This document shows positions 2,465-21,370 of a stretch of 64,000 nucleotides of DNA, piece after piece (the first letter of the stretch is position 1; every line of letters begins with the position of its first letter). Origin of the DNA: an uncultured Alphaproteobacteria bacterium (GTDB taxonomy: Bacteria; Pseudomonadota; Alphaproteobacteria; Rhodobacterales; Rhodobacteraceae); contig CAVPZT010000006.1 in NCBI GenBank assembly GCA_963710285.1, positions 1,080,838 through 1,144,837 on the forward strand, read 5' to 3'. Position numbers and translations under genes: made by a program. The notes beneath the pieces are model-generated. The model searched no databases. It was not told the origin of the DNA and saw nothing but the letters and a program-made list of their open reading frames with translations.

Positions 2465-2469
2465 GTTGA
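2465..2469. repeat. left copy of the 5-bp target-site duplication GTTGA
   Basis: GTTGA lies immediately outside the left transposon terminus, and an identical GTTGA lies immediately outside the right terminus (21366..21370). Confidence 0.8.
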
Positions 2470-2500
2470 TGTCGAATCCAGTAAATAACGCCCTTTTCAG
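2470..2500 (+). repeat. left terminal inverted repeat (IR-L)
   Basis: TGTCGAATCCAGTAAATAACGCCCTTTTCAG against the reverse complement of 21335..21365, TGAGGAGTCTGGGAGAAAACGCCCTTTTCGG: 22/31 identical, including an AACGCCCTTTTC core. It also resembles the Tn402/Tn5053 IR pattern TGTCG....CAG.A.ACGG. Confidence 0.75.
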
Positions 2501-2561
2501 CTCTCCGAACCCCATATTTCATTGAGTCTGTATTTGGGATCGGCCGAAAACTCACCCTTGA

Positions 2562-2580
2562 TGTCCGGGAATTATCGCCC
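2562..2580 (+). repeat. subterminal repeat L2 (putative TniA binding site)
   Basis: TGTCCGGGAATTATCGCCC matches the reverse complement of 21298..21316 (TGTCCAGATATTATCGCCC) at 16/19. It is also related to 5830..5848. Confidence 0.6.
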
Positions 2581-2619
2581 TTTGAGATTCCGCCCCATCA
2601 GCGCACCCGGAATTGAAAC

Positions 2620-2639
2620 GGCCGCCCATCTGGGCGGCC
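2620..2639 (-). terminator. hairpin terminator downstream of tniQ
   Basis: GGCCGCCC-atct-GGGCGGCC stem-loop 25 nt after the tniQ stop, followed on the minus strand by GTTTCAATT. Confidence 0.55.
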
Positions 2640-2664
2640 GCATCGGTGTTGGTAGTCTGTAATC

Positions 2665-4503
2665 TCAGAGGTTCGCGCGTCGGTAGACGAACTTGTTTAG
2701 CGCCGATTTCTGGAGGATTGGCGCGATGCCTCGTCTGTCGAGGTGCTTGCGTAGGTACTTCGTCGAGAAACCGAGCTCCACCGCCAGTTCTTTGAGGTCG
2801 ACGTGCTCGTCCGAAAATCGTTCGATGTCTATTGGGTCGATGAAGTGCTTTAGCGCCCCTGACGATGACTCGACCGATTGGCTCGGTAGGATTGGCTTGC
2901 CATTCGGATTCGTGCTCGTGAAGAGCGCATGCACGGCCCAGGTTTCCATGTCGAGACGAGCCGCGGCTTCAGCGATTGTTATACGACCTGCGCCATGGTC
3001 TGCGCTTAGGCGAGAGCGAACCTCATCAGGATCCACGAGCACTGATCGAAGCTTCAGCTCGGGCGAAAGCAGTTCGATGCGGTTCAACCGCCGCTCGAGC
3101 ACCAGTTTCACGATGTCGATGGCCGGCCATCGCACTATTTCCGAGACCTCGACAACGTCCACCATGCCGCAGCTGCCTCGTTCTACGGAAACCCCGTGCG
3201 ACCGGAACCGGTCCAGGAAAAGGTCGAGGTCGTCAAGCGGCACGAGGTTCAGCCCGCTCTCACCGCCATCGCGATTTTCCCCGATCCGGGAAACGAACGC
3301 TTGACGAACAATGGCCTCGGCCTGAGGTCGGCAGCAGTTCAAGTAGGCAGAAATTCCGGTGACGGGGATCGCCCGCCGCATGCGATCGGCGAGCCGCTCC
3401 CCTTCCTCGGCATCGACCGTCAGGAATCCGTCCACGAAATCGACATCGCCTTCGGGCATCAAGCCCGTCAGGACGAGGCCGCGGTTCAGAGTTCGTCTGT
3501 TCAGTCCGGTCGCTTTCGCGAGACTTGCGACGGAGTGCCGGCGGCGTTCCGACACGGGTTCGCCGAAGAGCATGGTCCCCGGTTCGATCGCCATGGTGTC
3601 GAGCAGATACTCCCTGAAGACCTCGCGGAAGGGCCCGCGATCCCGGTGGCTCTTGCTAAACTGAAGCCACTCGTAGAGGCGACGGAATAGCCGTTGCGGG
3701 CCACCGCGTTTCGCTGTTCGGCTCGGTCTGAGGGCGATCTCATCGAGGCCCTCGCGGACACCGGCAGCGCCCCTCGAGGTGAACTCGAAGCCCACAGCAC
3801 CGGCCTCGTTCCAGTCGTCCTCTGTCTGGGAGGAAAACTCGATGCCGGGGCCCCTGAGGACACAGATGCCCAGCATCTCGGTCGAACGGGTGGCAAGATC
3901 GATCTGCTGGCTGTCAAGCCATTCGGGGCCAACCGCACCGTCGAACCGGCGATCGACGTACGATTGCAGTGGCGAGACACGACGGCTTGACGAAGAGGAG
4001 ACGATTTTCTGCAGTTCGGCGTCGTCCGGCGCGACATCGGCCATATCCTGGAACACTTCCGACCAGCTCTCGTTCGCTCGCCGGACGAGCGGAATGCCAT
4101 GGACCGCGCAAGTCCGAACCACGGAGAATTGCCAGAAGATCAGCCCGACGCGATGTCCTTCGCTCACCGACCCGCGGCTCCCATCTGCGAGCAGGCAGGC
4201 AGGGCAGTAGGTGGTCCTATCGCGGCCGACAAACTCAGCCTGGAATCGAAGCCCGCGATGTTCATAGACCCGGTCTCCAACACTCGTGTAGGCGCCGTGA
4301 AGGAGCACTTCCTGGCCGATACCCGTCAGCTCTTGCAGCCGTTCGACGGCTTCCGGGGTCACCCCGATGATGTCCTTTCGTTGGAGGCCCAGGAAGGCAA
4401 GGAAATCTGCCGGCTCCATGCCCGTCTCTTGTCGGCCGAACCGCGACACCATGGACACCAGACTTTCACCGGCGAGGAGACTGTATGACGTCGAGAAGGC
4501 CAT
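2665..4503 (-). CDS. tniQ: TniQ-family transposition target-selection protein (612 aa, TnsD-sized)
   Basis: Intact ORF with an N-terminal TniQ domain carrying a Cys/His cluster (TYCPACLLADG ... VVRTCAVHGIPLV). It starts 2 nt after the tniB stop. Confidence 0.85.
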   Translation of the reverse strand: MAFSTSYSLLAGESLVSMVSRFGRQETGMEPADFLAFLGLQRKDIIGVTPEAVERLQELTGIGQEVLLHGAYTSVGDRVYEHRGLRFQAEFVGRDRTTYCPACLLADGSRGSVSEGHRVGLIFWQFSVVRTCAVHGIPLVRRANESWSEVFQDMADVAPDDAELQKIVSSSSSRRVSPLQSYVDRRFDGAVGPEWLDSQQIDLATRSTEMLGICVLRGPGIEFSSQTEDDWNEAGAVGFEFTSRGAAGVREGLDEIALRPSRTAKRGGPQRLFRRLYEWLQFSKSHRDRGPFREVFREYLLDTMAIEPGTMLFGEPVSERRRHSVASLAKATGLNRRTLNRGLVLTGLMPEGDVDFVDGFLTVDAEEGERLADRMRRAIPVTGISAYLNCCRPQAEAIVRQAFVSRIGENRDGGESGLNLVPLDDLDLFLDRFRSHGVSVERGSCGMVDVVEVSEIVRWPAIDIVKLVLERRLNRIELLSPELKLRSVLVDPDEVRSRLSADHGAGRITIAEAAARLDMETWAVHALFTSTNPNGKPILPSQSVESSSGALKHFIDPIDIERFSDEHVDLKELAVELGFSTKYLRKHLDRRGIAPILQKSALNKFVYRRANL

Positions 4504-4505
4504 GA

Positions 4506-5492
4506 TCAGGTCCGCTCGAGTTGCTTGTTCTGGCGCTTCGTCCGGGCGGCCTCGAAGTCATCCGCCGCGCCATCGAGGCGGATCGAGCTCCATGAGTCGG
4601 CGACAAAGACGTTATCGTGCCATGGGCAGCCTTCCTGCATCCCCCAGGCCTCCGCGAAATGGTCGCCTTCCAGCTTGTCCGCCCCGTCGCGAAGAGCACG
4701 CTCTATGGCGTTGATTGCGGTCTCCACCGCCCGGCCGAAGCGGCCGCGGCTGCCGTGGATTAGCCGGGCAGCGAGGTCGTCGCCTACGCGGGACTCGAGG
4801 CCGGCCTCGTTCGCGTACTTCCCGATCAGCGAGTTGATAGCGCGCGCGTTCCCGGCGCTGAGGTCGCACGGGATGATCTTGGAGAAGCGGCGGTTGACCT
4901 GTGGATCGAAGCTGGTGATCTGGGACAAACGGCCGGTGCCGCTGAGAATGACGATCACGCCGGCCTCGCCGAGCATCATCGACTTGAGCATCTTCAGCAT
5001 GTCGTCGATTTCACGCGTCGAACGCGAGAGAAAAAGGTCCTGTGCCTCATCAATCCAGAGGACCGTGTAGCCCTGCTTGCAGAGCTGGATGCGGATCACC
5101 TGGAACAGTTCGAACGCCGTGACACGCGGAGGGAGTTTCGTGAAGCCGAGCCGCGCCAGGATCGCATGTCCGAGGCTCTTGAGGGTGGCAGGGTTCGGCA
5201 CCTGGACTTCCAGGTAGCGCGGTTGGCCATCGGTCGGGGCCAGGCATGCAGTCTTGGAGAGGACATGGCGGATGGCGGTCGTCTTGCCGCCCCCAGCCGC
5301 CTCGATCAGTGCGATGCCGCGCGTCTCCTGCTTGAGGGTAAAGCGGACGGGCTCAGCGATCTGGTTGCCGCCGGCATCGACCTGGAGCAGATGATCGAGA
5401 TGCTCCTTCAGCTGCCGATCGCGCTCGGTATCGATGTGAATGGAGCGCAGGTGGTCAATCTTCTGAGACACTTGGACTGGGTTCAGTTTCAT
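4506..5492 (-). CDS. tniB: TniB/TnsC-like AAA+ ATPase
   Basis: Intact 328-aa ORF with Walker A (EAAGGGKTTAI) and Walker B (VLWIDEAQDL), followed directly by tniQ. Confidence 0.9.
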   Translation of the reverse strand: MKLNPVQVSQKIDHLRSIHIDTERDRQLKEHLDHLLQVDAGGNQIAEPVRFTLKQETRGIALIEAAGGGKTTAIRHVLSKTACLAPTDGQPRYLEVQVPNPATLKSLGHAILARLGFTKLPPRVTAFELFQVIRIQLCKQGYTVLWIDEAQDLFLSRSTREIDDMLKMLKSMMLGEAGVIVILSGTGRLSQITSFDPQVNRRFSKIIPCDLSAGNARAINSLIGKYANEAGLESRVGDDLAARLIHGSRGRFGRAVETAINAIERALRDGADKLEGDHFAEAWGMQEGCPWHDNVFVADSWSSIRLDGAADDFEAARTKRQNKQLERT

Positions 5493-5689
5493 GGCGGGGA
5501 CTTCCTACCGGGGCGCTTCCGCCCGATTTTGGGGTTTGCGACAGATCCAGGATCACATCGCGAAGGCGCCTTGTGGCACATCAATCGGCGGCTTCTTGTT
5601 GGATATTGGCTGATTGCTGAAATCCGGAAGAAAAATCTTGGCTGCTCGCCGAACATTTTTGCTATGTCTACAAGCCTACTGGTCCGCAA
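5489..5689 (-). CDS. 66-codon ORF translationally coupled to tniB (accessory gene or relic of an upstream gene)
   Basis: Its TGA overlaps the tniB ATG (ATGA at 5492-5489). It contains an HTH-like stretch, LVDIAKMFGEQPR. There is no clear start context (TTG) and I do not recognise a family. Confidence 0.3.
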   Translation of the reverse strand: MRTSRLVDIAKMFGEQPRFFFRISAISQYPTRSRRLMCHKAPSRCDPGSVANPKIGRKRPGRKSPP

Positions 5690-5797
5690 GGGACGTTCCG
5701 GACCCTCGGGCTACGCGCTCAAACTCCGTCGAGTCTACGACGGCCTCCTGAAAGATGGGCCGGGAAGCGGGCATTCGCCACGAGTGCGAGCCAGTCA

Positions 5798-5855
5798 TGT
5801 CGCGACGTCCGAAAGCGACATTCACTGGATGTCGAAAGGGAATTATTTGTTGCAC
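5798..5855 (+). repeat. composite motif A at the tniB-side cargo boundary: TGTCG hairpin plus a third transposon-end-like site
   Basis: TGTCGC-gacgtccgaaa-GCGACA, then TTCACTGGA, then TGTCGAAAGGGAATTATTTGTTGCAC. The last part resembles IR-L/L2 (TGTCG.., GGGAATTAT). The overall layout recurs at 18045..18101. Confidence 0.5.
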
Positions 5856-6020
5856 TGCCGCAGGTCGGCTCCGAACCAAATCTGACGAATGCTGCACCCT
5901 GCGCGAAGTGGAGCGAGCCGCGGAAATTCGGCATTGATGGACGCAGTCACGGCCCGTTCCTTAAAATGGCCGACTTTTGCTCCGCCTCACTGGCCGGATT
6001 TTACTCCGCCGTTGACAGAT

Positions 6021-6482
6021 TCAATTGGATAAGTGGTCAGGTGCACGGTTTCGCACCGATCCGGGGATGGTACCGCCCAATCCGCCGCGTAGACGGCGCG
6101 CCAGATCGAAGAAAGCTGTCGCGTCCTGGCCGAGCGCAGCGCGGATGGTGTCGTCGACTGCCGCCCAGGCCCTACTGATCCCGGTCAGCAAGGTGCGTCC
6201 CTTTTCGGTAAGTTCGAGAACCTGTCGCCGACGCGATGCGGGATCGGTCGCACGCGTGATGTAGCCGGCGGCCAGCAGGCGGTCCGTCATGGTGCTCATG
6301 CTGGCCGAAGTGACCCCGAACGCCGAAGCGAGGTCGGTCTGAGAAACGGGGCCCGTCCGGCCCATCGCGTCGATGACGCGGGCCTGACGCGGATGGATCC
6401 CCAGCGGCGCCAATTGTCGGCGAAGCTCCGCTCTCGACAAGGTCCGCGCTGTGAAGGAACCCATGGAAGTCATGTTGGTCAA
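6021..6482 (-). CDS. MarR-family transcriptional regulator
   Basis: Intact 153-aa ORF with a winged-helix region (VSQTDLASAFGVTSASMSTMTDRLLAAGYITRATDPASRRRQVLELTEKG). It is divergent from the YHYH gene. Confidence 0.85.
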   Translation of the reverse strand: MTNMTSMGSFTARTLSRAELRRQLAPLGIHPRQARVIDAMGRTGPVSQTDLASAFGVTSASMSTMTDRLLAAGYITRATDPASRRRQVLELTEKGRTLLTGISRAWAAVDDTIRAALGQDATAFFDLARRLRGGLGGTIPGSVRNRAPDHLSN

Positions 6483-6498
6483 CTTGCATGCTAACAGT

Positions 6499-6508
6499 TA
6501 GTATACTA
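6499..6508. promoter_or_regulatory. perfect 10-bp palindrome TAGTATACTA in the marR / YHYH divergent promoter region (candidate MarR operator)
   Basis: AT-rich palindrome in the 76-bp divergent intergenic region between 6482 and 6559. Confidence 0.35.
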
Positions 6509-6558
6509 TACATTGATGAATCGCAAGCTGCCATCCATGCTCATTCGAGGGAATCACC

Positions 6559-7600
6559 ATGCTCGCAAACCCGGTCACGCAGTTCGCTGTCGCTGCTTTC
6601 CTCGCCGCCACCCTCCTGACGGCCGGCCCGGCCCTTGCGCATTCCGAGGAGGAGACCCTTGCCCGCATCGCTGCCTTCTTCGCGACCGCAAAGGTCGTGG
6701 ACGGCCCGAAGCAGGTCGATTGTACCCTGTCCGGCGGCACGGAAACGACGTGTTTTTCCATCACGGTCAGCCAAGTGCCGCAGACCTATACCCCCGGCCC
6801 ATGGTGCCCCATGAACATCTCGGACGGTCCGGAAAAGGGCGGTATCTGGTTTCTGGACGGCAAGACTGTCGACGTGGACGGCGCATTCATCGCAAATCTG
6901 GCGAAGACCTATGGCGATGCGAAATGGCAGCTTTTCGACCCCGAGACGGGCGCGGTGCGGTACACCGGCACCTTGGAAGCCTGCGAGGCCGCCGCGCGTC
7001 CCGATGTCGATCCGGCCTACCAGAATTACTGCGTGCAGTGCCTGCCGGAATACCTGCCGGCGGACGCGACGACCACCTATGTGATCCCCCTGGACGCCGG
7101 TCCCCGACGGGTGGCCGCGCTGGTGGCCGAGGCGCGCGAACCGCGGCCCTTCGGGCATCGCTTCCAATGGCGTGCGCCTTGATGGTCCCGCCCCGGTCGA
7201 TGCGATCCTCGGGGCGCACACCATCGCGCCCTTCGACGATTGCGGCGGCCATGTGAACCTCCATGAAGGCTATCACTACCACGCCGTGACGGATTGCCTC
7301 TCCGGCGCGCCGACAACGATCGCGGGGGCCGATGCCAAGGCCGTCGCGGCGCTTGGCGGCCAGATCGGCATTGCGATGGATGGCTATGCGATCTTTCCCG
7401 CATCTCATGGCCGACGGTCGCGGCGCCGGAAGGCCTTGATCGCTGCTACGGGCACGAGGCGAGAAAGCCTTGCCTACCACTATCACGTCGGTTCTGCGGG
7501 CTCGAACCAGATTCTCGGCTGTCTCGCGGCGGAAACCGGCTGCACGCTCGTGGAAGGGCAGACGGTTTGCGATGCAACCCGTCCACCGCCGCGCCCCTGA
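6559..7600 (+). pseudogene. secreted YHYH-domain protein, frame-disrupted
   Basis: Signal peptide MLANPVTQFAVAAFLAATLLTAGPALA. YHYH motifs are present (HEGYHYHAV, LAYHYHVG). The coding sequence runs through ORFs 6559..7182 and 7172..7600, with a short excursion into the 7294 frame near 7390-7470. Confidence 0.7.
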
Positions 7601-7641
7601 TGGGGACGGCATTCGTCGAAACAGACCAAGAGTATCTCTCA

Positions 7642-7967
7642 ATGAACCTACGTAACTTCAGCCTTGACCCCCGTCGCGCTGATAGGGCTGATCGGCCTGT
7701 CGCTGCCGGCTATCGGCAGAGGACGGCTCTCTGTTCGTCCCCGATCGAACTGGCCCAGTCCCAAGGCCGCCCGCAGGGTGGTCCGCAAGGCGGTCCGCCG
7801 CCGCAAGAAGCGTTCGATGCCTGCGCTGCGATCGCGGAGGGTGACGGCCTGCGCATTCAGGCTTCAGGATGACGCAAGCATCGAAGGCACCTGCCACAAA
7901 CCGCCGCAAGGTACGGCAGGGCGCTCTGGTTTGCGTGCCCAACGACGCGCCGCCGCCCAAGGGCTGA
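7642..7967 (+). pseudogene. small secreted Cys-rich protein with a GGPQGGPQGGPPP tract, frame-disrupted
   Basis: Pieced together from three frames: MNLRN.. / ..TPVALIGLIGLSLPAIG (signal peptide) / ..QGGPQGGPPPQEAFDACAAI.. / ..ACAFRLQDDASIEGTCHKPPQGTAG / ALVCVPNDAPPPKG-stop at 7965-7967. Confidence 0.35.
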
Positions 7968-8075
7968 TCCACGGGAAGCCGCGCTTTTCCAGTAGGCGAG
8001 ATCGTATCATGACTTCACCTGTCCAAACCGAACACGCTCAAAAGCGGCTTTCCTGACGCCAAAGCGCTTGGGCAG

Positions 8076-8767
8076 GTGGGTCCTGCGGTCCTGATCGTGG
8101 CGGTGCTCTGGATTGTTTCAAGTCAGGGGTATTACGCGCTTGTTTCGGCGCTCGGATTGAAGAGCGGGTATGACGGTGCGCCGGTGCTGTTCACGGCCTA
8201 CTACCTTGGCTGGACCGCGGTCGCACTTTGGCTGTTCCGTCCCTTGGTCGCCGATCGTCTGGACCGCAGCACAATTGCGCGCGAAGGGCTGGTTATGCTG
8301 CCGATTCTCGCGGGCTTTGCGCTGTTCGTGGTCTACGGCCTGCCGATGCTGCCGAGGGTTTCGGCCCTGCGCGCGCCGTCCGAGCCGCCGGAGTTCATGT
8401 TCGCCTCGGCTTGGTACTACCTGCCGAAATCGGCTGACATCCTGTTCCAGCAGACGCTCGCGGCGGGGCTCATCCTGACGGCGGCACGGGCCGGGTATCG
8501 CCTGCGCCCGATCGCCATCGGCATGGCGGTGGCGTTTGGCGGGTTCCATCTGCTTCTGGCGTTCGACGGGTTCACACCAACCTATGTCACCCGTTTCACC
8601 CTGTCCGCGACCGCGTTCGGGGCGTTGCTTCCCTATCTCTACCTGCGCCGTGCGGCGGGTTCCGCTGGGCCTATTCGCTGCATTGGGGGTTCTACGCGCT
8701 TGATGCAACGCTGACGCATTTCATCCTTGCGATCCCGCCCTGGGCGCCGAAATGGGCACCGCTCTGA
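8076..8767 (+). pseudogene. polytopic membrane protein of unknown function (weak CPBP-like FxxxH motif), one frameshift near 8655
   Basis: ORF 8076..8714 is hydrophobic throughout. The C-terminus continues in another frame (GFRWAYSLHWGFYALDATLTHFILAIPPWAPKWAPL-stop). Confidence 0.5.
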
Positions 8768-8798
8768 CCGCAGCACCGCATATTCAAGGACTATCGCC

Positions 8799-10141
8799 AT
8801 GAAGACCATTCGACTGACACTTTGGACGATCCTGCTGGGCCTGACCGGCCTGTGGGTTGCGGCCAACCTGCCGCTGCCTGACACCCTGACGCGTCATCGC
8901 AACCCGCAATCTGCTTGCTGCAGTATTCCGGTGTGCTGGCCATCGCCGCCATGAGTGTGGCGATGATCCTTGCCACCCGCTGGGCTTGGGTGGACCGTTG
9001 GCTGAACGGGCTGGATAAATCCTACCGGCTGCACAAATGGCTGGGAATTGCCGCCTTGGTGGCATCGATTGCCCATTGGGTCTTTTCCAGTGGTCCGAAA
9101 TGGGCGGTCACTCTGGGCCTGATGGAGGCCCCGACCCGGGAACCCCGCCCCGAGGCTGCGCAAGACATCGCCACGGTTCAGGATTTCTTCAACAGCCTGC
9201 GCGGCCCGGCCGAGGGGATTGGCGAATGGGCGTTTTACGCCGTGGTTGTGCTGATCGCCATCGCGCTGATCCGGCGTATTCCCTACAAGTTCTTCGCCTC
9301 GACCCATACCCTTTTGGCCGCCGCCTATCTGGCGCTGGTGTTCCACGCGACGGTTCTTCTGGAGTTTGACGCCTGGATGCAGCCGCATGGGATTGTTCTG
9401 GCGCTTTTGATGGCGGGTGGCAGCATTGCCGCCGTGCTGGCGCTGACCCGGCAGATCGGCCGTCGCCGCCGGGTGGCGGGGCGGATCGCCTCGATCCTCA
9501 ATTTTCCGTCGATGAAGGTGACCGAAGCCGAAATCACCCTGGACGCGGCATGGCCGGGGCATGATGCGGGGCAGTTTGCCTTCGTCACCTTCGACCGGAA
9601 GGAAGGCAAGCATCCCTTTACCATCGCCTCTGCCTGGAACCCGGAAACCCGGTCGATCACCGTGATCAGCAAGGGTCTGGGCGATTATACCGAACTCTTG
9701 CCGGCCAAACTGGCGGTCGGGGATGAGGTGACCGTCGAAGGGCCTTACGGGCGCTTTACCTTCGATGATGCGAAAGATCGCCAGATCTGGATCGGCGCGG
9801 GTATCGGCATCACGCCCTTCATCGCCCGGCTGAAGCATCTGGCGACCGCACCGGATGGCAAGCAGGTCGACCTGATCCATTGCGCGCCAGAGGTCGCACC
9901 GCAAGCGCGCGCCCTGCTTGACCGCGACATTGCATCGGCCAAGGCCAAACTGAGTCTGATGATCGACGGCAAGGACGGCTTTCTGACCGGGCCGCGGCTG
10001 CGGGAGATGTTTCCGGACTGGGCCACGGCCAGTGTCTGGTTCTGCGGCCCTGCCGCCTTCGGCGATGCCCTGCGCAAGGACTTGGTCGCCCACGGTCTGC
10101 GCCCCGCCGATTTCCATCAGGAACTGTTCAACATGCGATGA
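8799..10141 (+). pseudogene. ferric-reductase-like transmembrane domain fused to an FAD/NAD(P)-binding (FNR-like) domain, one frameshift near 8900
   Basis: The start (MKTIRLTLWTILLGLTGLW) is in the 8727 frame and the rest is ORF 8915..10141. It has His-bearing TM helices (YRLHKWLG, IAHWVF) followed by RxYT-like FTIAS and GIGITPF nucleotide-binding motifs. Confidence 0.7.
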
Positions 10142-10217
10142 GCGGCGGCGGCGCCACCACGCGCGGGGCATCCCCCGTGATCTGCCCCCCGAACCGCAAG
10201 ACCCCAAGGAGTCCGCT

Positions 10218-11448: not shown

Positions 11449-11533
11449 AAGCTACTTGGCACAGTGAGTGACCTCAGCCATGTGCGTCGAGGTCAGTCGA
11501 CAGGCCCGTGTCCCGGAAAGAGGAACCCAGCCC

Positions 11534-11743: not shown

Positions 11744-11745
11744 CC

Positions 11746-12427
11746 ATGAAACTCACCGCCAAATCCGCCACCATCCTCACCGCAATCGCCGTCTTCGTCG
11801 GCCTGCCGCTGATGTTCTACGCCCTGGGCGACGCCCCGCGCCGGACGGTGCTGAAAGAGGTCATCTCCATCGCCACGCTGCTGGCCTTCGCCGCGATGCT
11901 CGGCCAGTTCTTCATGGCGCGCAGCAACACCTGGCTTCTGAGCGTCTTCAAGCCGCCGCAGATCCAGAAGGTCCACAAGTATATCGCCTATACGGCGGTC
12001 GGCGGTGATCCTGCTGCATCCCGGTTCTGATCGTGCTGCCGCGCGCGCTCGAGGGCGGTGTGCGCCCTTGGGACGCCTTCGTCACCATGATCACCGACCT
12101 TCGACAGCCTCGGTATCCTGCTGGGCCTTATCGCTTGGGCGTTGCTTCTGGTGCTGGCCGTGACCGCGTTCTTCCGCAAGCCGCTTATCAAGCGCCTCGC
12201 GACCCATTACCGCGGCTGGCGCTATTTTCATGGCGGGCTGGCAGTCAGCTTCACCGTCTTGGCCCTCTGGCATTCCATCACCCTCGGCCGCCACACCGAC
12301 CTCGTCGATGTCGGCACTGCTCGTCATGCTGGCGCTGATCGGTTTCGCCATGTTGGCGAAGCTCTACTGGGGCGGGCCGCCGAAGACGCCCCGACCGAAA
12401 CCCGTTTCCGAAGGAGCCGCGTCATGA
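11746..12427 (+). pseudogene. YedZ/MsrQ-like ferric-reductase-type membrane anchor (b-heme), several frameshifts
   Basis: Hydrophobic protein spread over the frames of ORFs 11464..12030, 12142..12552 and 12230..12427. His residues sit in TM helices (KVHKYIAY, YFHGGLAV, LALWHSI). Its stop overlaps the next start (ATGA at 12424). Confidence 0.55.
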
Positions 12428-14176: not shown

Positions 14177-14831
14177 ATCGGCGGTAGGGGTGTGGCCCTT
14201 CGGAGCGATGCAGCGCGGTGAGCGATGCTGTCCCCGGGCGGTGTGCGCCCTCCATCCTTTGCACGGAATTCTGAGTATGCGCGCGGGGCGATGTGCGATG
14301 AGCAGATGGCGATTGCATTCTCCGCCATAACGCAGCCGCCAAAGCTGCACTCCCCTACGGCACCCATCGAGGATCGGGCGGACTCTCGGTTGACCTGAGC
14401 CTGTCGGCGGACGCACGGGCTCAAAGCATGCTAAAGTGGTCGCGACGCGCCGAGACCTGCCACATGAGTTGCTCACTCCGACGGCCGCTTCGTCCCGCGA
14501 CGCCGACATCACTATTTTCGAGACCGGCGCCTTGCCATCTTCGAAAGCGCTTCGTCGTGCCGCGTGGCGGCGAGTCTCTCCGGCCAACGATGGTACAAAC
14601 CGAAACGCGTTTTGGATTGGCGCCAAGTCCAAAGCGACCCAACATCTCGCATCTCCGCGCCTGAGTTTTCACGATTCATCCATGGCCACGAGGCAGATCC
14701 TGAACGAAAGTGATCCGTAGGTAACAGCGCGGTCTATCATGTACTTGACGCTCGCCCGCATCACATCGTTGCCACATTCGAGAATTCTACTATGACGCGA
14801 CTGCAACGGATTGGTTCGGCGGAGAAAACCT

Positions 14832-16379
14832 ATGCTGCGTTTCACCATATCGCTTGTCGCAGGCGCCTTCTTCTCCACCGCCTCGGCAATAGCGCAGACA
14901 CCGGTCGAACTGGCACGGCATGCGATCGATACCGGCGACTTCGCGGCGCTTGAAACCCTACTCGCGGATCAGACCGAATCGGCGCACGAGACACGAGACT
15001 TATCTGCGCTGCGCGGCCTTTTTGGAACGTTGTTTGAAACGGCGAACTCCGCGCGTCTGGAGCGAGAGGAGGCATGGCTGGCGGCGTATCCCAACTCGGC
15101 CTACGCGGCGTCGGCGCTCGGCTGGTCACACATGCATCTGGCTGTTCTGGCGCGCGGGACAGCGTCAACGCGGTTCACCTCCGGCGAGGCGTTTGCTGCG
15201 CATCGCGAAGAATTGTCGGTGTCGCTGGCGATGACGGATCGGGCCCTCAAGGGCGATCCCGATTTCGTACCGGCGCTCGACCTTGCAATCGTGCTTGCCA
15301 TGTATGGTGGCGGCCAGTCCGCCGTTTCGTCCCTCGTTGAACGAACACTGTCGGTCGCACCAGACCCGCATGCCCTCGTCCTCGGGCTGACGGCGCTCTC
15401 TCCGCGCTGGGGCGGGAGTGTCGGGCAGCAGTTCGCATTGTGCGACACCGCAAAGGATAAGCTGCCAGGCTTCGATGACGACATCTGCCTGATCTATGTC
15501 ACCTTCTCGGAAGGGCTGGACGGTGAGATGCGTCAGAAGGCGCTCGCCGCGCTCGAAAAACGCGACGAGTCCTTGCTCGACTTCGCGCGCGCGGACGCCT
15601 ATCGCCACGAATGGCGCGGCCGACCCGGGGCCGCGGAGAAGTCGATGCAATTCCTCATGCAGAGGATCGGGCCGGGTGCGGGTTTCGACGCCCTCGAAAG
15701 CGATCTTCGCTTGATCGCCCATACCTTCAGGGATCCCTTCTTTGAGATCGATGCCGAGGATGCCATAGTGGCCGCGCTGAGGGAGACGCTGCGCGACAGC
15801 CCCGAAGATTATCGCGTTCTGGGACGGCTTCTTGCCGGCATCTTCGACAATAGCCGCCCGGACGTTGCACTGGAACAGGCGGACGAGGCGCGCGCGCTGT
15901 GGCGCGCGATGCTTGTCCGGGGGCGCTACAATCCCGAGGTCTGGGCGTCCGGCGAACGCCTGGAGCGGTATCTCGGGAGCTGGACCAAACCAGCGCTGAC
16001 AGGTCCCTATGCCGTCAACGAGATCTACTACAGCAATCACGGTTCCAACCCGCTCAGACAGTATGTCATTGACCTTTTCCGGTTGCACGAAATGGCGCGC
16101 CGGCCGGAAACGCTTCCTGCAGGCACCACGCTCGACGACCTCGGCGACGATGTCCTCCTTTGCCCGATGTTCCGCGCGCAGAGGCTTTTCGCCGCTATTT
16201 GCGAGCGTTCGTCGCGGGAGCGCGGATGCAGTTCGGCGGGGGCGGACGCCAACGTGCCCGACGAGGTCCGCCGCCTGATGTCCAGGACCGAAGCCTGCCG
16301 TTGGGAGCGGACTGCACCGGTCGCGGAACTCAGGTTCCAGCCGGTTTCGGTTTCACACTTCCTCGGGGATGACAAATGA
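14832..16379 (+). CDS. secreted protein of unknown function (DUF4034-like helical repeat), paralog 1
   Basis: Intact ORF with signal peptide MLRFTISLVAGAFFSTASAIAQ. It resembles the next gene along its whole length, including the C-terminal motif CPM.R..RL....C....C......C. Confidence 0.6.
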   Translation: MLRFTISLVAGAFFSTASAIAQTPVELARHAIDTGDFAALETLLADQTESAHETRDLSALRGLFGTLFETANSARLEREEAWLAAYPNSAYAASALGWSHMHLAVLARGTASTRFTSGEAFAAHREELSVSLAMTDRALKGDPDFVPALDLAIVLAMYGGGQSAVSSLVERTLSVAPDPHALVLGLTALSPRWGGSVGQQFALCDTAKDKLPGFDDDICLIYVTFSEGLDGEMRQKALAALEKRDESLLDFARADAYRHEWRGRPGAAEKSMQFLMQRIGPGAGFDALESDLRLIAHTFRDPFFEIDAEDAIVAALRETLRDSPEDYRVLGRLLAGIFDNSRPDVALEQADEARALWRAMLVRGRYNPEVWASGERLERYLGSWTKPALTGPYAVNEIYYSNHGSNPLRQYVIDLFRLHEMARRPETLPAGTTLDDLGDDVLLCPMFRAQRLFAAICERSSRERGCSSAGADANVPDEVRRLMSRTEACRWERTAPVAELRFQPVSVSHFLGDDK

Positions 16380-17908
16380 TCCGGATTGCACTGACGCTGA
16401 TATTGCTCATGTTGGCGCACCCGTCGCTGGCGCAGGATCCCGTCGATCAAGTGCGCGCGCTTCTCGACGCCGGTGATGTCGACGGGCTTGAGCAAACCCT
16501 TCGCGCCCTGCACGATGCGCAGCGCGCGGGCGGGAGCGCGGCCGCACTTCGCGCGGTCAACGCGCGGCTCTTCGAGACCACCCACCCGGAGCGAGGTGAA
16601 GTGATCCGGCGCTGGCAGGAGAGTCGTCCGGATTCGGTCTACGCCGCCACGGCCGCGGCGTGGCGGGCGATCAAACTGTTCGAAGCGGTCGGAAACCCCG
16701 ATGACCGCTATCAGGTCCCTGTTTCCCCCGCGGGACTGGCGGCCTATGACAAGGCGAAGAGCGAAGCCCAAACGGCGATGGAGCGCGCGCTCGACCGCGC
16801 GGGCGACTATCCCCCGGCGCGCGATGCCTGGTTCCGGCTGCGTGCGGTCTCTCCGAAACGCGACGGGGTTGGCGAGATGGCCGAGGCCTTGATTTCCAGC
16901 GCGCCAGAGGCTGAGAGCATCCGTGTCATTCTCGCCGCGACGCAATATTGGTCTCCGCATCCCGGGCAGGACGTCCTCGGCGCCTGCCTCACCTACGCGC
17001 CCCTGACACGGGAATATGACGTTGACCGCTGCGTCATCGAGGCGGCCATTGCCTACGATGTCGGAAGCGACCTGCATGACAAGGCCGCCGAGGCGCTAAT
17101 AGGGATGGATGATCCCGCGCTCGACCGGGCACATCTTCAACAGGCGGTATGGGCGAGCGGCCCGGACAGCTGGGATCTCGACCGGATCAAAACCTGGTAT
17201 CGCCGCATGCCGCTTTCGACTGCCGATCTGAACTGGTACGTGACCACCGGTCGCAGGATCGCGTCGATCGGCAAGCGTCCGGAAATCCTCGTCGCCGGAT
17301 CGAACCGGGCGCTCGACGAAATCGCGGTTCGGATACCTGACAATCCTCTGGACCCGTCACTGCGGGCCTTGGAAGCGGCGTTGCGTCTCGAACGATATCT
17401 GCGCGACCATGATGCGGAGGACCTCGCGCTCGCCCGGGAAGCCTGGGAGGCTGGCGTGGTGTACGGCGGCACCTCCGCAGACTATTGGCAAGCGGGCAGC
17501 CTCTTGGCCACTGTCGACAGGGCGCAATGGGACGTCGCGGACGCATTCGTGTTCCACGAGAACGCGATCGCGTATTCCGGGCAGAGCGTCGCCAATCTCG
17601 TGTTCGCCTTTTACTGGATGGATGAAGCGCGCATTGCCGCCGAGATGGCCGACGGCACGTCGGGAGCGGGCGAAGCACGGGAACGGCTCCAATGTCCGAT
17701 GCTCCGCGTGGCCCGGCTTGCCGACGCGCTTTGCAAGAAGGACCCGTCTGCGGCCATGTTCTGCGATCCCGCGCAGCCCCCCTTCGCGCACGGGCCCGAG
17801 GTGCTCGCGTCAGGGCGCGAAACCTGCTCGGAAGTCGCCAACGCACGGCTGTCGTCCATCAAGTTCGAACCCGTTCCCTACGCAGACGTGTCGTTGCCTT
17901 GGAAATAG
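16376..17908 (+). CDS. secreted protein of unknown function (DUF4034-like), paralog 2
   Basis: Intact ORF overlapping the previous stop (ATGA), with signal peptide MIRIALTLILLMLAHPSLAQ. It has the same N-terminal pattern (..DAGD.D.LE..L..) and the same C-terminal Cys pattern as paralog 1. Confidence 0.6.
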   Translation: MIRIALTLILLMLAHPSLAQDPVDQVRALLDAGDVDGLEQTLRALHDAQRAGGSAAALRAVNARLFETTHPERGEVIRRWQESRPDSVYAATAAAWRAIKLFEAVGNPDDRYQVPVSPAGLAAYDKAKSEAQTAMERALDRAGDYPPARDAWFRLRAVSPKRDGVGEMAEALISSAPEAESIRVILAATQYWSPHPGQDVLGACLTYAPLTREYDVDRCVIEAAIAYDVGSDLHDKAAEALIGMDDPALDRAHLQQAVWASGPDSWDLDRIKTWYRRMPLSTADLNWYVTTGRRIASIGKRPEILVAGSNRALDEIAVRIPDNPLDPSLRALEAALRLERYLRDHDAEDLALAREAWEAGVVYGGTSADYWQAGSLLATVDRAQWDVADAFVFHENAIAYSGQSVANLVFAFYWMDEARIAAEMADGTSGAGEARERLQCPMLRVARLADALCKKDPSAAMFCDPAQPPFAHGPEVLASGRETCSEVANARLSSIKFEPVPYADVSLPWK

Positions 17909-18044
17909 GGTCAATCGATGAGGGAAGGGGTGGAGGGATGGAACTGCAAAGCTGGTCGGACGCGCTCTCGCTGAAGGTACGATCTATCGACGTTCCTTTC
18001 GCCTTCCGCCCTCTGGTCGGTCGGGCCGACAGTTGTAGGGTTGC

Positions 18045-18101
18045 TGTCGGCGAAGCTTCTTTACGGCCGACATTAGTGGACAGTCAGTGTCGAGCCGACG
18101 G
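18045..18101 (+). repeat. composite motif B at the tniA-side cargo boundary
   Basis: TGTCGGC-gaagcttctttacg-GCCGACA, then TTAGTGGA, then cagtcag-TGTCGAGCCGACGG. It has the same layout and orientation as 5798..5855 (shared CGACATT..TGGA followed by TGTCGA). Confidence 0.5.
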
Positions 18102-18409
18102 CATCCGAACTTGTCAACATCCGCGCTGTAAGGACATTCCCCTCTCAACACGGCAAAGAATCTATTTCCACCCGAGTTGCTGTTTAACGCGGTCGCTAAC
18201 AGCCGAGGCTGTGTGGAAGCCCATGAAGAGACTGACACACCGGCACAACTCTGATGATGTGACCGTCCTCCTTTGTGGATCGTCGCAGACCCACCTTGGC
18301 ACATCGATGCCGTCGGGGGGCGGTCACATCATCAAAGCCGACAAACACCTATCGGCATTTCAGAAATTCTAATGCGATGCCTCGGGAACGCGTGCCGCGG
18401 AATTGAAAA

Positions 18410-18433
18410 CGCCGGCAGATGAATCTGCCGGCG
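18410..18433 (-). terminator. hairpin terminator downstream of tniA
   Basis: CGCCGGCAGA-tgaa-TCTGCCGGCG, a 10-bp stem about 30 nt after the tniA stop, followed on the minus strand by TTTTCAATT. Confidence 0.65.
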
Positions 18434-18462
18434 TGTCCCTCCTGGGGTTAATCGATGAAGCG

Positions 18463-20565
18463 CTACCCGCGGAATGCCCACCCGCTGCCGTGCTCCTCCG
18501 GCCCGCCGCTGCCCGGTCCCGTTTGCTCGACGTCGGAGGCCTCATCGCGAATGTCGAGGACTGAACCCTGAGGAAGGATGACCCTCCCGGGCCCATTCTC
18601 AGAAAGCGCCAGTTTCGGGGACGTCGGCACGATCGCGAACGATGCGAACAGGGATTCCTCGAGCTTTTGCAGGTATTCGACCGAATAGGGCTTGTCGATC
18701 AGTTGGAACTGCAGCGAACGGTGCTGGTTCAGAGCCTTGATCGCCGCCATCGCTTCGCGCACAACGTCTTCGTTCCAGGCGGCCTGCTTCGGCGAGCGGG
18801 AGCGAAGATCGCGCCTGGTGGCGATCCAGACCTGTGCGTGCACTCCGTCGAGCCCTTCCTCGCTCGCACGCACTTCCTGCCACGACCCGTCGATCTGCAC
18901 TTCGATCGCGCCGATGTCCGCCTCATCCCAGCGGATGCTGAAGTGGCGTGGGCCGCCGCTGACAATGCTGTGCGCCAGCGCCTCGTTCTGATGGCGAACC
19001 CCCAGGACCGTTATCCCCTCCTTCGTTCCCTTCATCGTTCGGGAGATCCCGAACGCGAGCCGTTTCCGGCGTTTGTCGGGCGCTGCTTTCAGGGGGTAGT
19101 TGCCCTCGCGGTGATCCCGCTCCCACTGCTCGCGCGGCGTCCGGCCACCCAGCCCCCGGCGGGGGGTATTGTGGTAGATGTCGACGATCCAGCGCACCAG
19201 AATGCGGCAGATGTCTTCCGCATCGAGGCAGGCACGCTTCTCGGCCGGATGGTCGCCCTTTTCGACGACATCCGAGAAGGTTCGCCCGGACAGAAGCGGT
19301 AGCAGATTGCTTCCGATGGTCCCGAAGATCCGCTCCCCGGTTCCGCGCATGGTTGCCGCACCGGCGATGGTGCGCAAATGCGTCATGCCGAGGTCGCAGC
19401 AAGTGTCGGTGAAGGCCTTGGCTTTGAACGCACTTCCGTTGTCCGTGGCAATCAGTTCCGGCGTGCCGGCCTCGCTCCAGCGGCACTTCGCACCGGTCGC
19501 ATCGGAGATCTCGCCCTTGTCGCTCACCACCATTCTCAGACAGTTGGCGGCGGAACTTTCCCTTGGGTTTTTCGTCAGCATGAAGCCGAGGATGATCTTG
19601 GTTCGGCAGTCGATCGCGAGCGTGGCCCACCAGCGCGCCTTCTTGTCGTCCAGCCCGAGGCCCTGAAGCTCCTCGTCGGTGAAGAGTTTCAGCAGCCCAG
19701 CCTTTGCCATGACTGTCATTAGGTCGATCTTCGTCTCATCCATCTCGACCCGCTCGAGCGGGCGCGAGACCTCGATGCCCTTGTTGACGGGCCGATGATC
19801 GTTGATCGTCTTCTCGATCCCGTACCGCGCGAGGGTGACCGAGAACTTGTCCAGACCGTCGATATACTGGCGAATGGCGTGCCGCCCCGGCACCCTGAGG
19901 ACAGGAAGCCCGGCCGCTTCGCGACGCTTGTTCTCATCGTGGAACGCGTCCTTGACTGCCTTCTCGGTCAGCAGCTTCGTCATTCGGTTCAGTGTGAGAT
20001 AGTTTTCGTTCACGGTCTTCGCCAGCAGGGCGTTGGTTTTGATGTCATAACCGTTGTCCCTGCGCCCCCGCAGGGAAGTACGGGGCGCCAGACCGATCTT
20101 TCCGTCTCTCTCGAAGTCGCGCACGTAGCCCAGCAGGGTCCTCGGATGGACGCCAGAGACCGCCGCCACCAGCTTCCCACCGTGCCTTTTGGTTGCGGCG
20201 GCATCAGAACCGGGATCCCGCAGCATGTCCTGCTGATCGACCCTGTCCTTCATGTATGCGACTGCACCCCCGGCGATCGATGCCTGCTTGGCCGAGATCG
20301 AACTCTCCGTCCTATGGACGAGCCCATTGTTGAATTGGTCGAGGAAAGACTGGACGAGAGCGAACCTCAGGTCGACGACTTCCTTGTCCTCCGGACGCAG
20401 GGCGGCCAGACAGTCGTCGCCGATCGGCTTGGACTCGCGGCGGATCACCGTGTCCGGACTGAAGAAACTGACCTTGTGCTTGATCCGACCGCTCGACGAG
20501 AGTTCGTTGATGATCTGGAACGGGAAGGTCTGTGCCAGCCCCTTGCCGTCCACAGGGACGAGCAC
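18463..20565 (-). CDS. tniA: TniA/TnsB-like DDE (retroviral-integrase-fold, Mu-type) transposase, 700 aa
   Basis: Intact ORF with a GTG start. The catalytic core pattern is present (VEMDETKIDL ... ELIATDNGSAFKA ... GTGERIFGT), followed by a Mu-transposase-like C-terminal domain. Confidence 0.9.
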   Translation of the reverse strand: MLVPVDGKGLAQTFPFQIINELSSSGRIKHKVSFFSPDTVIRRESKPIGDDCLAALRPEDKEVVDLRFALVQSFLDQFNNGLVHRTESSISAKQASIAGGAVAYMKDRVDQQDMLRDPGSDAAATKRHGGKLVAAVSGVHPRTLLGYVRDFERDGKIGLAPRTSLRGRRDNGYDIKTNALLAKTVNENYLTLNRMTKLLTEKAVKDAFHDENKRREAAGLPVLRVPGRHAIRQYIDGLDKFSVTLARYGIEKTINDHRPVNKGIEVSRPLERVEMDETKIDLMTVMAKAGLLKLFTDEELQGLGLDDKKARWWATLAIDCRTKIILGFMLTKNPRESSAANCLRMVVSDKGEISDATGAKCRWSEAGTPELIATDNGSAFKAKAFTDTCCDLGMTHLRTIAGAATMRGTGERIFGTIGSNLLPLLSGRTFSDVVEKGDHPAEKRACLDAEDICRILVRWIVDIYHNTPRRGLGGRTPREQWERDHREGNYPLKAAPDKRRKRLAFGISRTMKGTKEGITVLGVRHQNEALAHSIVSGGPRHFSIRWDEADIGAIEVQIDGSWQEVRASEEGLDGVHAQVWIATRRDLRSRSPKQAAWNEDVVREAMAAIKALNQHRSLQFQLIDKPYSVEYLQKLEESLFASFAIVPTSPKLALSENGPGRVILPQGSVLDIRDEASDVEQTGPGSGGPEEHGSGWAFRG

Positions 20566-20721
20566 AAAGGATTCGGCCGTTCGGGCGAGAAGGCGGAACG
20601 CGACTGCGTCGATCGTGACGCGGTCGTATCGGTAACGCCATCAACTGGTATGGCGCCGCCCTCTCCGATCTGCATCGCGAAGTTTCCGGCGGCAGGGCGG
20701 CGGCACGCCGTTGACATCCAA

Positions 20722-20747
20722 GGGGGGCGCAGGTGACTGCGCCCCCC
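20722..20747. repeat. perfect 11-bp GC stem-loop in the transposon right arm
   Basis: GGGGGGCGCAG-gtga-CTGCGCCCCCC, about 155 bp upstream of the tniA start, with no U-tract on either strand. Confidence 0.6.
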
Positions 20748-21297
20748 CCTGACGGCTCCCGGTTCCCGAAGCCAAAAGGCGGCAAGGTATGATCGCCTTC
20801 AGCCCCTCGACGCGCGCGCGATGATCAGGACAGATTGGGAGTGTCTGAGGACGCGCTTTTACACCCTGATCCACAATCGCACCGAAAGAGCGGCCACTGA
20901 CCAGTTCCGCTGGCTCCACCCGGAGTCCCAGAACCCCGACGGCCGCGCCGCCGCGAAGCAGGGAAAAATCGGCTTCGCCGCCGCCTACGAGGATGGCAGG
21001 GCCGCCCGATCCTCCCCCCGATCACATCGCGGTCGTCTGCGAGGTTTCGATCGCCTTTGGCGAAGCCGACACCGAACGCATCGCCTGCCCTCACCTCCGC
21101 AGCCGCGCCGGGACCTTTGCCCCTTCGAAACCCGCACCGGCCTCGGCATGGTCGAGGTGACCGAAGGATATCGCTTTTCGCTTCGACCGTCGCAAAATCA
21201 GAAGTCGGAGGTTTGCATTTCACCTGCCACCGCAATAAATCCTGCATGTATGACAGCGAATTTTTCTGCTCAGCAATTTCAATAGTTTAGCAGCGGA

Positions 21298-21316
21298 GGG
21301 CGATAATATCTGGACA
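21298..21316 (-). repeat. subterminal repeat R2 (putative TniA binding site)
   Basis: Its reverse complement TGTCCAGATATTATCGCCC matches L2 (2562..2580) at 16/19. Confidence 0.6.
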
Positions 21317-21334
21317 AAAGGGTGCCAAAAACCC

Positions 21335-21365
21335 CCGAAAAGGGCGTTTTCTCCCAGACTCCTCA
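21335..21365 (-). repeat. right terminal inverted repeat (IR-R)
   Basis: See IR-L: 22/31 identity, and the terminus ends in ...CA. Confidence 0.75.
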
Positions 21366-21370
21366 GTTGA
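21366..21370. repeat. right copy of the 5-bp target-site duplication GTTGA
   Basis: Identical to 2465..2469 and immediately abutting IR-R. Confidence 0.8.

Follow-up and report, generated by a model that had tools for sequence, protein, structure and literature searches.

Tn7 moves with a TnsA+TnsB transposase, the AAA+ protein TnsC and, in its TnsABC+D pathway, a TniQ-domain selector (TnsD) with a DNA-binding C-terminus that directs it to attTn7 beside glmS. It enters in one orientation, approximately 20 bp past the stop codon of this conserved essential gene and with its right end facing the gene, and duplicates 5 bp of target; the footprint of TnsD on glmS runs from about +23 to +58. TnsA is absent from some recognised Tn7-like subgroups, for example CRISPR-associated transposons (CASTs) of type V-K. 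Elements of the Tn5053/Tn402 group encode TniA, TniB, TniQ and the resolvase TniR, and hunt for res sites on plasmids or transposons. Among genes for ribonucleotide reductases, nrdB is a Tn7-like attachment site in Acinetobacter, for a branch mostly seen as degraded remnants (PMC11014353), and nrdD is one in Firmicutes and archaea (bioRxiv 10.1101/2025.07.27.667033). The searchable literature yielded no report linking nrdJ, the gene for the class II reductase, to Tn7-like elements or to TniQ. Here we describe an 18.9-kb element directly beyond nrdJ in a stretch of 64,000 nucleotides (the window) from an uncultured Alphaproteobacteria bacterium of the Rhodobacteraceae (assembly GCA_963710285.1, contig CAVPZT010000006.1). 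We consider it very likely to be a decayed copy of an nrdJ-targeting Tn7-like transposon from a mostly-Rhodobacterales clade, and probably a stranded, non-autonomous relic.

Boundaries and ends of the element

The element occupies positions 2470–21365, between an FGGY sugar kinase gene, the stop codon of which ends at 2460, and the convergent nrdJ gene, the stop codon of which lies at 21386–21388 (Table 1). Its left tip reads TGTCGAAT... from 2470 and its right tip ...ACTCCTCA up to 21365; at greater length, the element runs from TGTCGAATCC... to ...GACTCCTCA between the same two positions. GTTGA stands immediately outside both tips. An earlier sequence-only reading of this DNA had proposed a transposon here on the basis of a terminal inverted repeat, this 5-bp duplication and a pair of subterminal 19-mers, and all of these were recovered. 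The tips are complementary at 22 of 31 positions, and the 19-mers TGTCCGGGAATTATCGCCC (at 2562, plus strand) and TGTCCAGATATTATCGCCC (21298–21316, minus strand) are asymmetrically placed, 92 and 49 bp from the tips. These 19-mers are the sole two matches in the 64 kb at three mismatches or fewer, for which shuffled sequence gives an expectation of 0.11. Removal of one GTTGA leaves 24 bp between the convergent genes, as had been estimated, and the expected joined empty-site sequence spans ...GATGTGAGTGGGTTGAAAAGCGGCGCTCACC....

Taken alone, the inverted repeat and the duplication are unconvincing. We compared all pairs of window positions 2–45 kb apart with identical flanking 5-mers (3.24 million pairs), and terminal complementarity of at least 22/31 was seen in six of them, the element's own pair being one of the six. 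The possibility raised in the earlier reading, that the terminal similarity might be no better than random, is therefore borne out for these two features by themselves, whereas homology to the ends of related elements secures the tips, and it is this comparison that carries the case. With the tips set by homology to relatives and not by eye, a match between the flanking 5-mers becomes meaningful, having a chance probability of approximately 1e-3 at the local base composition. Positions 2562 and 21316 were also considered as the true tips, and were rejected because the 5-mers flanking them differ (CTTGA and AAAGG) and because the ends of the relatives put the tips at 2470 and 21365.

The ends differ in type. 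The end on the tniQ side (End-Q) is of the Tn7 left-end type and contains transposase-site cores (CGCCC or CACCC) at 20, 84 and 107 from the tip, that is at 2489, 2553 and 2576. The tip and the sites at 20 and ~107 are kept in the related loci L001, L003 and L084, approximately 195–206 bp past their tniQ stop codons. These three genomes (Cereibacter azotoformans, C. sphaeroides and Rhodobacter sp. CZR27) have an end of the form TGTTG...AATAACGCCCT there, and the window has its End-Q at a like distance from tniQ. The end on the tniA side (End-A) is of the Tn7 right-end type, with three cores at 20, 42 and 64 from the tip in an exact 22-bp period; the middle site, GGCACCCTTTT, had escaped the earlier reading. 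Homologues of End-A occur in L003, L084 and L088, and L103 has a similar end behind its End-Q. The resulting layout, with terminal TG...CA and several sites of ~22 bp that are contiguous on the right and dispersed on the left, reads as that of Tn7 and is kept in the relatives; the sites are predicted to bind the transposase. Right ends of L001, L003 and L084 were sought within 10-kb flanks and not found; a breakpoint in homology at ~7780 was rejected as an end, since it falls inside a vsr remnant. A comparison of the tniA–tniB junction regions with those of relatives gave only noise. We conclude that a genuine transposon has inserted here, with duplication of 5 bp, ends that are asymmetric in the style of Tn7 and genes of the TniA/TniB/TniQ families.

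Recurrent insertion past nrdJ

The tip of the window element lies 20 nt beyond the nrdJ stop codon. The final 45 bp of nrdJ code for a ...GCMTCxxCGxSKCG motif, are highly conserved at the DNA level and sit ~21–66 bp from the centre of the duplication, close to the distance spanned by the TnsD footprint on glmS. In a metagenome scan the right-end motif was met at one locus only (L088), where a long-type nrdJ has this kind of end 19 nt beyond its stop codon. On nrdJ-carrying plasmids and chromids of Rhodobacterales, we found TG-tipped ends with three repeats ~22 bp apart in Rhodobacter sp. CZR27 (L090), Paracoccus seriniphilus (L096) and Ruegeria sp. THAF33 (L097), in all three cases 18 nt past the nrdJ stop codon. 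Including the window and L088, right-type ends are found 18–20 nt past the nrdJ stop codon in five genomes or contigs. The end sequences differ across these five, and those of the repeats differ among L090, L096 and L097, so that these look like separate insertions; in both L090 and L096 tnsA and tniA are found less than 2 kb from the nrdJ-side end. The nrdJ flank looks unoccupied in P. albus and in Ruegeria sp. AD91A, and is neither clearly occupied nor clearly empty in C. sphaeroides and Paroceanicella. This comparative evidence shows insertion that is specific for site and orientation next to a conserved gene, as in Tn7-like elements. The element would thus appear to home to a fixed spot past nrdJ with the geometry of attTn7 at glmS, and by analogy the 3' end of nrdJ is presumed to be the attachment-site sequence read by TniQ.

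We also looked for alleles of the locus with and without the element. The exact kinase protein was sought as a way to a same-species empty site, and no record was found; in a scan of genomes with the kinase the best match was 74% identical, and adjacency of kinase and nrdJ was kept in 1 of 80 genomes. A Paracoccaceae metagenome-assembled genome (L005) does have the kinase and nrdJ genes (71% and 88% identical to those of the window) in convergent orientation, 7 bp apart and with no element between them, in a spacer too diverged to align. L005 is therefore an empty site in gene order, not base for base, and the check for an empty site put forward in the earlier reading was answered at the level of gene order only. 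The same insertion in a near-identical strain is seen in the metagenome contigs L092 and L093, which match the window at 99% identity and have its end–kinase junction. The former (sample JGI 3300045742; 96–99% identical) serves below as the comparison for the cargo and the tni genes.

TnsA in the related elements

In relatives with a full set of genes the order is tnsA-like, tniA, tniB, tniQ. A gene of 222–256 aa precedes tniA in every relative examined that has a full tniA-tniB-tniQ, and its 3' end sits in, or just before, the start of tniA, usually overlapping it. Sequence methods said little about this gene: Pfam TnsA_N matched in one member only, at E 0.13, and a profile search of PDB sequences returned nothing meaningful, while some database names for the protein are 'TnsA endonuclease N-terminal domain-containing protein' and 'PDDEXK family nuclease'. 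We therefore turn to an AlphaFold2 model made from 36 homologues, with a mean predicted local distance difference test score (pLDDT) of 86.7. Its only significant Foldseek matches in the PDB are to Tn7 TnsA (1t0f, 1f1z), at E values of 1e-7 to 7e-7; these are the top three hits, with probability 1.0, and the match extends over 229 columns covering both domains at 15–16% identity. The alignment contains invariant or near-invariant residues E79/E83, D117 and K133, which would fit the E-D-K active site of TnsA. As judged from the predicted fold, the gene upstream of tniA in the relatives encodes TnsA.

The sequence-only reading had noted that the window element has neither tnsA nor a resolvase gene, and had asked how cointegrates would be resolved. 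Both absences were confirmed: tblastn with the relatives' TnsA, orf112 and orf117 found no homologue of any of the three in the window, there was no Pfam match for TnsA, and no resolvase domain was seen in the open reading frames (ORFs) examined. What does not hold is the absence of tnsA as a trait of this type of element, since every full relative examined has the TnsA-fold gene by tniA. TnsA beside tnsB is thus a feature of the clade that is missing in this copy, and, being accompanied by truncation of tniA, its absence is a secondary loss and not a family trait. Because the relatives encode TnsA, the puzzle of cointegrate resolution dissolves into the decay of a TnsA-bearing Tn7-like element, and by analogy with Tn7 the family should move by TnsA+TnsB cut-and-paste. 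The placement with Tn5053/Tn402 that had been considered is not upheld either. No serine resolvase domain of the TniR (TniC) kind is present in any ORF examined (res sites were not searched for), the target is a fixed spot in the spacer past nrdJ and not a res site, and the relatives carry TnsA. The element family is Tn7-like, not Tn5053/Tn402.

Gene content and decay of the window copy

The profile searches suggested for the three proteins named TniQ and TniB/AAA_22 (Table 1), whereas the rve match of TniA within 18463–20565 stayed under the Pfam cut-off (28.6 vs 32.6 bits). The TniA homologues carry PF00665 and PF09299, and among PDB sequences TniA is best matched by TnsB of Tn6677, of PseCAST and of ShCAST (E 4e-25 to 8e-17). 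TniB is the same length as in L003 and L084, and its sole PDB sequence match is VchTnsC, the TnsC of V. cholerae. The TniQ homologues are 597–629 aa long. In the AlphaFold2 model of TniQ (pLDDT 89.9), an N-terminal TniQ zinc-ribbon domain is followed by a long C-terminal tandem of small helix-turn-helix-like units, and the best Foldseek matches are TniQ chains of type I-F3 CASTs, to the N-terminal half. A string of such units is the appearance expected of a protein-guided TnsD-like selector, and TniQ is presumed to be the selector for the nrdJ site. A TnsB-type DDE transposase, an AAA+ TnsC/TniB protein and a TniQ/TnsD selector, as expected of a Tn7-like element, are all encoded.

The earlier reading described a complete-looking transposon with all three tni genes intact. 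This is correct for tniB and tniQ, which are full length, and incorrect for tniA. TniA is 59–62% identical to homologues of 737–743 aa, the closest being those of C. azotoformans, C. sphaeroides and Rhodobacter sp. CZR27, in an alignment that begins at their residue 38. From tblastn and a listing of the codons, in-frame homology extends upstream of the GTG at 20565 as far as ~20628–20640 (...YRYDRVTIDAVAFRLLARTAESF-V...), where the frame meets a TGA at ~20640 with no ATG, GTG or TTG between this and the GTG. The original start and ~10 codons are lost, and the longest possible product lacks 37 N-terminal residues that are conserved across the clade. Between this truncation and End-A, the place of the relatives' tnsA and small upstream ORFs is taken by an unassigned spacer, for which tblastx against the relatives gave only noise and Pfam no match. 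Read together, the truncated tniA and the missing tnsA point to a deletion or replacement that removed tnsA and approximately the first ten codons of tniA. A tniA remnant beside tniB and second copies of tni genes were sought in the window and none was found.

Several cargo genes are frameshifted in the ORF maps. Across 6359–9649 the window is 96.4% identical to L092 and has, relative to it, 19 one-base insertions and 3 one-base deletions, all of them in the cargo; the flanking 6.3 kb of host and tni genes has 2 indels at 99% identity. This cluster of indels reflects either fast decay of the cargo or a locally poor assembly. With tnsA gone, the start of tniA gone and frameshifts in the cargo, a stranded, non-autonomous relic is the most likely state of the window copy.

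A model for the insertion and the alternatives to it

The observed ends, duplication, gene families, TnsA fold of the relatives, truncation and recurrent position past nrdJ can be joined into one scheme modelled on Tn7. The working form of an element of this clade would comprise a TnsA endonuclease, a TnsB (TniA) DDE transposase, a TnsC (TniB) AAA+ adaptor and a long selector of the TniQ/TnsD type. As TnsD does at glmS, TniQ would bind the final ~45 bp of the nrdJ coding sequence, which are conserved, and there recruit TnsC, which would activate TnsA+TnsB. These would cut the element out and paste it ~20 bp past the nrdJ stop codon, with the right end facing nrdJ and 5 bp duplicated. The window copy would have arrived in this manner between nrdJ and the convergent sugar kinase gene with 13 kb of cargo between its tnsB and tnsC, and would later have lost tnsA and the first tnsB codons while frameshifts accumulated in the cargo. 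We infer the binding of TniQ to nrdJ DNA and the cut-and-paste chemistry by analogy with Tn7 and, for this copy, a present-day inability to move by itself; at most it might be moved in trans.

Several observations sit less easily with this scheme. L001, L003, L084, L087, L095 and L103 are without nrdJ within 10 kb upstream of tnsA, and the element on a Ketogulonicigenium plasmid is without it within 70 kb upstream; either long cargo fills the flanks of these relatives or not all members of the clade use nrdJ. The partner left ends and duplications for the insertions in L096 and L097 were not found in the fetched flanks. In L090 and L096, tnsA-tniA points toward the nrdJ-side end and neither tniB nor tniQ is nearby, so that these elements either follow another organisation or have been rearranged. 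The right tip of the window element starts TGA instead of the usual TGT, with the terminal TG/CA dinucleotide retained. The nearest unoccupied allele is that of L005, with its unalignable spacer, and a same-species empty site was not found. With regard to decay, the frameshifts could partly be assembly errors, and tniB and tniQ are open with no clear excess of amino-acid changes relative to L092 (5 synonymous and 9 non-synonymous changes in tniQ, counts that are tiny, as are those for tniB). A product from the internal GTG might also be active.

This last point leads to an alternative that we regard as improbable, in which the element's own transposase is defective and the element nonetheless remains mobile, either moved in trans by a related full element elsewhere in its genome, through its intact ends, TnsC and TniQ, or served by an active, N-truncated TnsB from the GTG at 20565. 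Continued movement would be favoured by the intact state of the two ends and of the duplication, by open tniB and tniQ genes that are 98–99% identical to those of a second strain, and by the common presence of several elements per genome (Rhodobacter sp. CZR27 has one on its chromosome, L003, and one on its chromid, L090; L094 has two). However, no second element lies within the 64-kb window, the shared junction in L092 and L093 fits vertical inheritance better than recent movement, and the decay of the cargo suggests long residence.

Much less probable still is a complete, autonomous TniA/TniB/TniQ element, of the Tn5053/Tn402 family or of a new TnsA-less type, that transposes replicatively and leaves the resolution of cointegrates to the host. 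The truncated tniA, without a start codon and a conserved N-terminus, argues against completeness, and the TnsA-fold gene directly upstream of tniA in all full relatives argues against a TnsA-less type; against Tn5053/Tn402 stand the want of any resolvase gene found, the fixed target past nrdJ in place of a res site and the multiple 22-bp sites in an asymmetric Tn7 layout. Its attraction lies in the Pfam names TniQ and TniB, the 5-bp duplication, the lack of a detectable tnsA or resolvase in the element and the precedent of the TnsA-less type V-K CASTs. The idea that two unrelated tni fragments bracket native chromosomal DNA, with the GTTGA repeat a coincidence, draws on the 13 kb that separate tniA from tniB, on the metabolic look and opposite strand of the genes in the middle, and on the fact that an inverted repeat with a 5-bp repeat is not rare by itself. 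We find it scarcely credible: kinase and nrdJ are directly adjacent in L005, the ends are of complementary left and right types in the correct orientation, the 5-mers match at ~1e-3 with tips defined by homology, the single element of L084 likewise has its tniA and tniB separated by cargo, and none of the tni genes has a second copy or a remnant in the window. A decayed, nrdJ-targeting Tn7-like transposon is thus the reading that we retain.

Comparison with described systems

The clade shares with Tn7 the TnsA+TnsB transposase (in the relatives), an AAA+ TnsC and a selector that combines a TniQ domain with a DNA-binding C-terminus, as well as the 5-bp duplication, the contiguous 22-bp sites of the right end and dispersed sites of the left end, and insertion in a single orientation, ~20 bp beyond where a conserved essential gene stops and with the right end towards that gene. 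It differs in its target (nrdJ instead of glmS), in having no TnsE, and in the very low identity of its proteins, the TnsA match being by fold only (15–16%). The arrangement also differs, in that tniQ here is the gene next to the left end, with cargo upstream of tnsA and/or between tnsB and tnsC, whereas Tn7 holds its cargo between tnsE and the left end; this copy is in addition without tnsA and the tnsB start. The type I-F3 CASTs (Tn6677/Tn7016-type) provide the best solved-structure matches (TnsB of Tn6677 at E 4e-25, VchTnsC, and the TniQ of PseCAST and of V. cholerae) and also have a tns operon split by cargo. There, however, the split falls between tnsC and tniQ and not between tnsB and tnsC, and the TniQ described here is ~200 aa longer, with DNA-binding repeats of its own (predicted). 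The element does not appear to be a CAST, as there are no Cas families among its main ORFs and no array-like family among the repeats listed. With Tn5053/Tn402 it has in common the three Pfam families and the 5-bp duplication, but no TniR resolvase gene was found, the relatives have TnsA, several 22-bp sites take the place of a simple 25-bp inverted repeat, and the target is the end of a chromosomal gene instead of a plasmid res site. Like the elements that target nrdB and nrdD, it is inserted beside a ribonucleotide reductase gene in what would be a TniQ-directed manner; unlike them, it is found at the class II gene nrdJ and in Rhodobacterales hosts.

The clade looks like an undescribed variant of Tn7-like transposons, with a new attachment site and with cargo between tnsB and tnsC, and the window copy looks like an ordinary decayed member of it. 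The interest of the finding comes mainly from the attachment site. To nrdB and nrdD it adds nrdJ as a further reductase gene that an independent Tn7-like lineage targets, and the nrdJ 3' flank becomes a predictable place for cargo islands in Rhodobacterales and a marker for annotation; restriction-modification, Dcm/Vsr, other defence genes and metabolic genes are found in or next to the related elements. A TniQ with a modular DNA-binding tail, as predicted here, could serve studies of target-selector evolution or site-specific integration in marine alphaproteobacteria. For this genome, the appropriate annotation is a defective Tn7-like element with pseudogenised cargo. Two further readings are in our estimation unlikely: that there is a large undescribed nrdJ-homing branch in Rhodobacterales and, more boldly, that the tnsA-less copy with its N-truncated TnsB still transposes replicatively like the type V-K CASTs. 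Were such a branch to exist, all three classes of ribonucleotide reductase would be independently targeted by Tn7-like elements, and the branch may use the tnsB–tnsC gap as a regular second cargo bay.

Cargo and other features of the window

Table 1. Features of the element and its flanks (window coordinates; loci beginning with L are related loci).
Feature	Position	Strand	Basis or remark
Target-site duplication GTTGA, left copy	2465..2469		Identical to 21366-21370; tips set independently by homology
End-Q (tniQ side, Tn7 left-end type), 8-bp tip TGTCGAAT	2470..2600	+	Conserved in L001, L003, L084
GC-rich hairpin AAACGGCCGCCC-loop-GGGCGGCCGC directly 3' of tniQ stop	2617..2645	-	Present in window, L001, L003
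tniQ, 612 aa	2665..4503	-	Pfam TniQ, E 3.5e-17, 63.8 bits
tniB/tnsC, AAA+ regulator, 328 aa, full length	4506..5492	-	Pfam TniB 45.4 bits, AAA_22 45.2 bits
Cargo, 13 kb between tniA and tniB	5493..18462		Pfam, ORF maps
marR	6021-6482	-	Divergent from plus-strand gene set
YHYH pseudogene	6559-7600	+	L092 retains intact 344-aa YHYH gene
Membrane protein	8076-8714	+	ORF/Pfam scan
Ferric-reductase-like flavoprotein	8915-10141	+	Pfam
Lcl_C/DUF1566 gene, frameshifted	~10220-11448	+	Pfam, ORF map
2x[4Fe-4S] ferredoxin	11468-11743	+	Pfam
Broken membrane gene	~11740-12550		ORF map
FAD flavoprotein	12512-14176	+	Pfam
Two paralogous genes, 522 and 510 aa	14811-16379, 16376-17908	+	Pfam search; no Pfam family
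23-nt inverted repeat, 87% complementary, between convergent tniA and last cargo gene	18249..18337		Repeat search
tniA/tnsB, DDE transposase, 5'-truncated	18463..20640	-	ORF from GTG at 20565, 700 aa
Unassigned spacer replacing relatives' tnsA and small upstream ORFs	20641..21291		~650 bp, no matches
End-A (tniA side, Tn7 right-end type), 8-bp tip TGAGGAGT at 21358-21365 read inward	21292..21365	-	Homology to relatives' ends
End-A contiguous 22-bp sites	21336-21357, 21314-21335, 21292-21313	-	Cores at 20, 42, 64
Target-site duplication GTTGA, right copy	21366..21370		Sequence reading
nrdJ 3' end encoding ...EGCMTCPSCGHSKCG*	21386..21450	-	DNA conserved across Rhodobacterales nrdJ

The position of the cargo between tniA and tniB is unusual and not unique. 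In L084 (C. sphaeroides) the corresponding gap is 3.2 kb and contains gamma-glutamyltranspeptidase and DUF1989 genes; it is 0.9 kb in Rhodobacter sp. CZR27, and the two genes are adjacent in more distant members. The best-preserved portion of the window cargo is the pair of paralogues, which have signal-peptide-like N-termini. The hairpin behind tniQ is probably a terminator, and the inverted repeat that separates the convergent tniA and last cargo gene probably terminates transcription in both directions.

Organisation and cargo of related loci

In L003, L084 and L103 a right-type end stands a few bp behind the tniQ-side end. This second, outward-facing end lies ~3–8 bp past the first (L003:16150-16300, L084:18490-18620, L103:16330-16480), the count depending on where the tips are placed, and in L003 and L084 the next gene after it encodes a cell-wall hydrolase. 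The adjoining ends look like tandem arrays from repeated insertion at one site, and would be expected because new copies landing at the same site push older ones away.

The tnsA-tniA modules that point toward the right-type end, with only one or two small ORFs between, are found at L090:19207-25855, L096:14037-20732 and L094:10001-14768, in Rhodobacter sp. CZR27 (chromid), Paracoccus seriniphilus and Rhodovulum sp. ES.010, respectively, with the end 18 nt past nrdJ in two of these. None of the three modules has tniB or tniQ close by, and they represent either a subfamily with its own organisation or a rearrangement that has recurred. In Cereibacter sphaeroides MBTLJ-20 (source 2.4.1), TIR-domain and hypothetical genes lie directly past nrdJ with no recognisable transposon end (L100:11310-12175), and this stretch is perhaps what is left there of an island that has eroded completely. 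A linear, phage-plasmid-like Phaeobacter piscinae plasmid with a protelomerase gene (L102:5928-10250) has an nrdJ of its own with a different C-terminus and no element adjoining it.

Upstream of tnsA, L001 and L003 carry a defence cluster of Dcm methylase, Vsr, Z1, HATPase and AIPR/DUF4420 genes (L001:1-7918, L003:1-7909). In L084 only a vsr remnant of ~130 bp is found in this place, which suggests replacement of the cargo. In Rhodovulum sp. ES.010 a complete type I-E CRISPR-Cas gene set (L094:189-5808) lies 4 kb upstream of tnsA-tniA.

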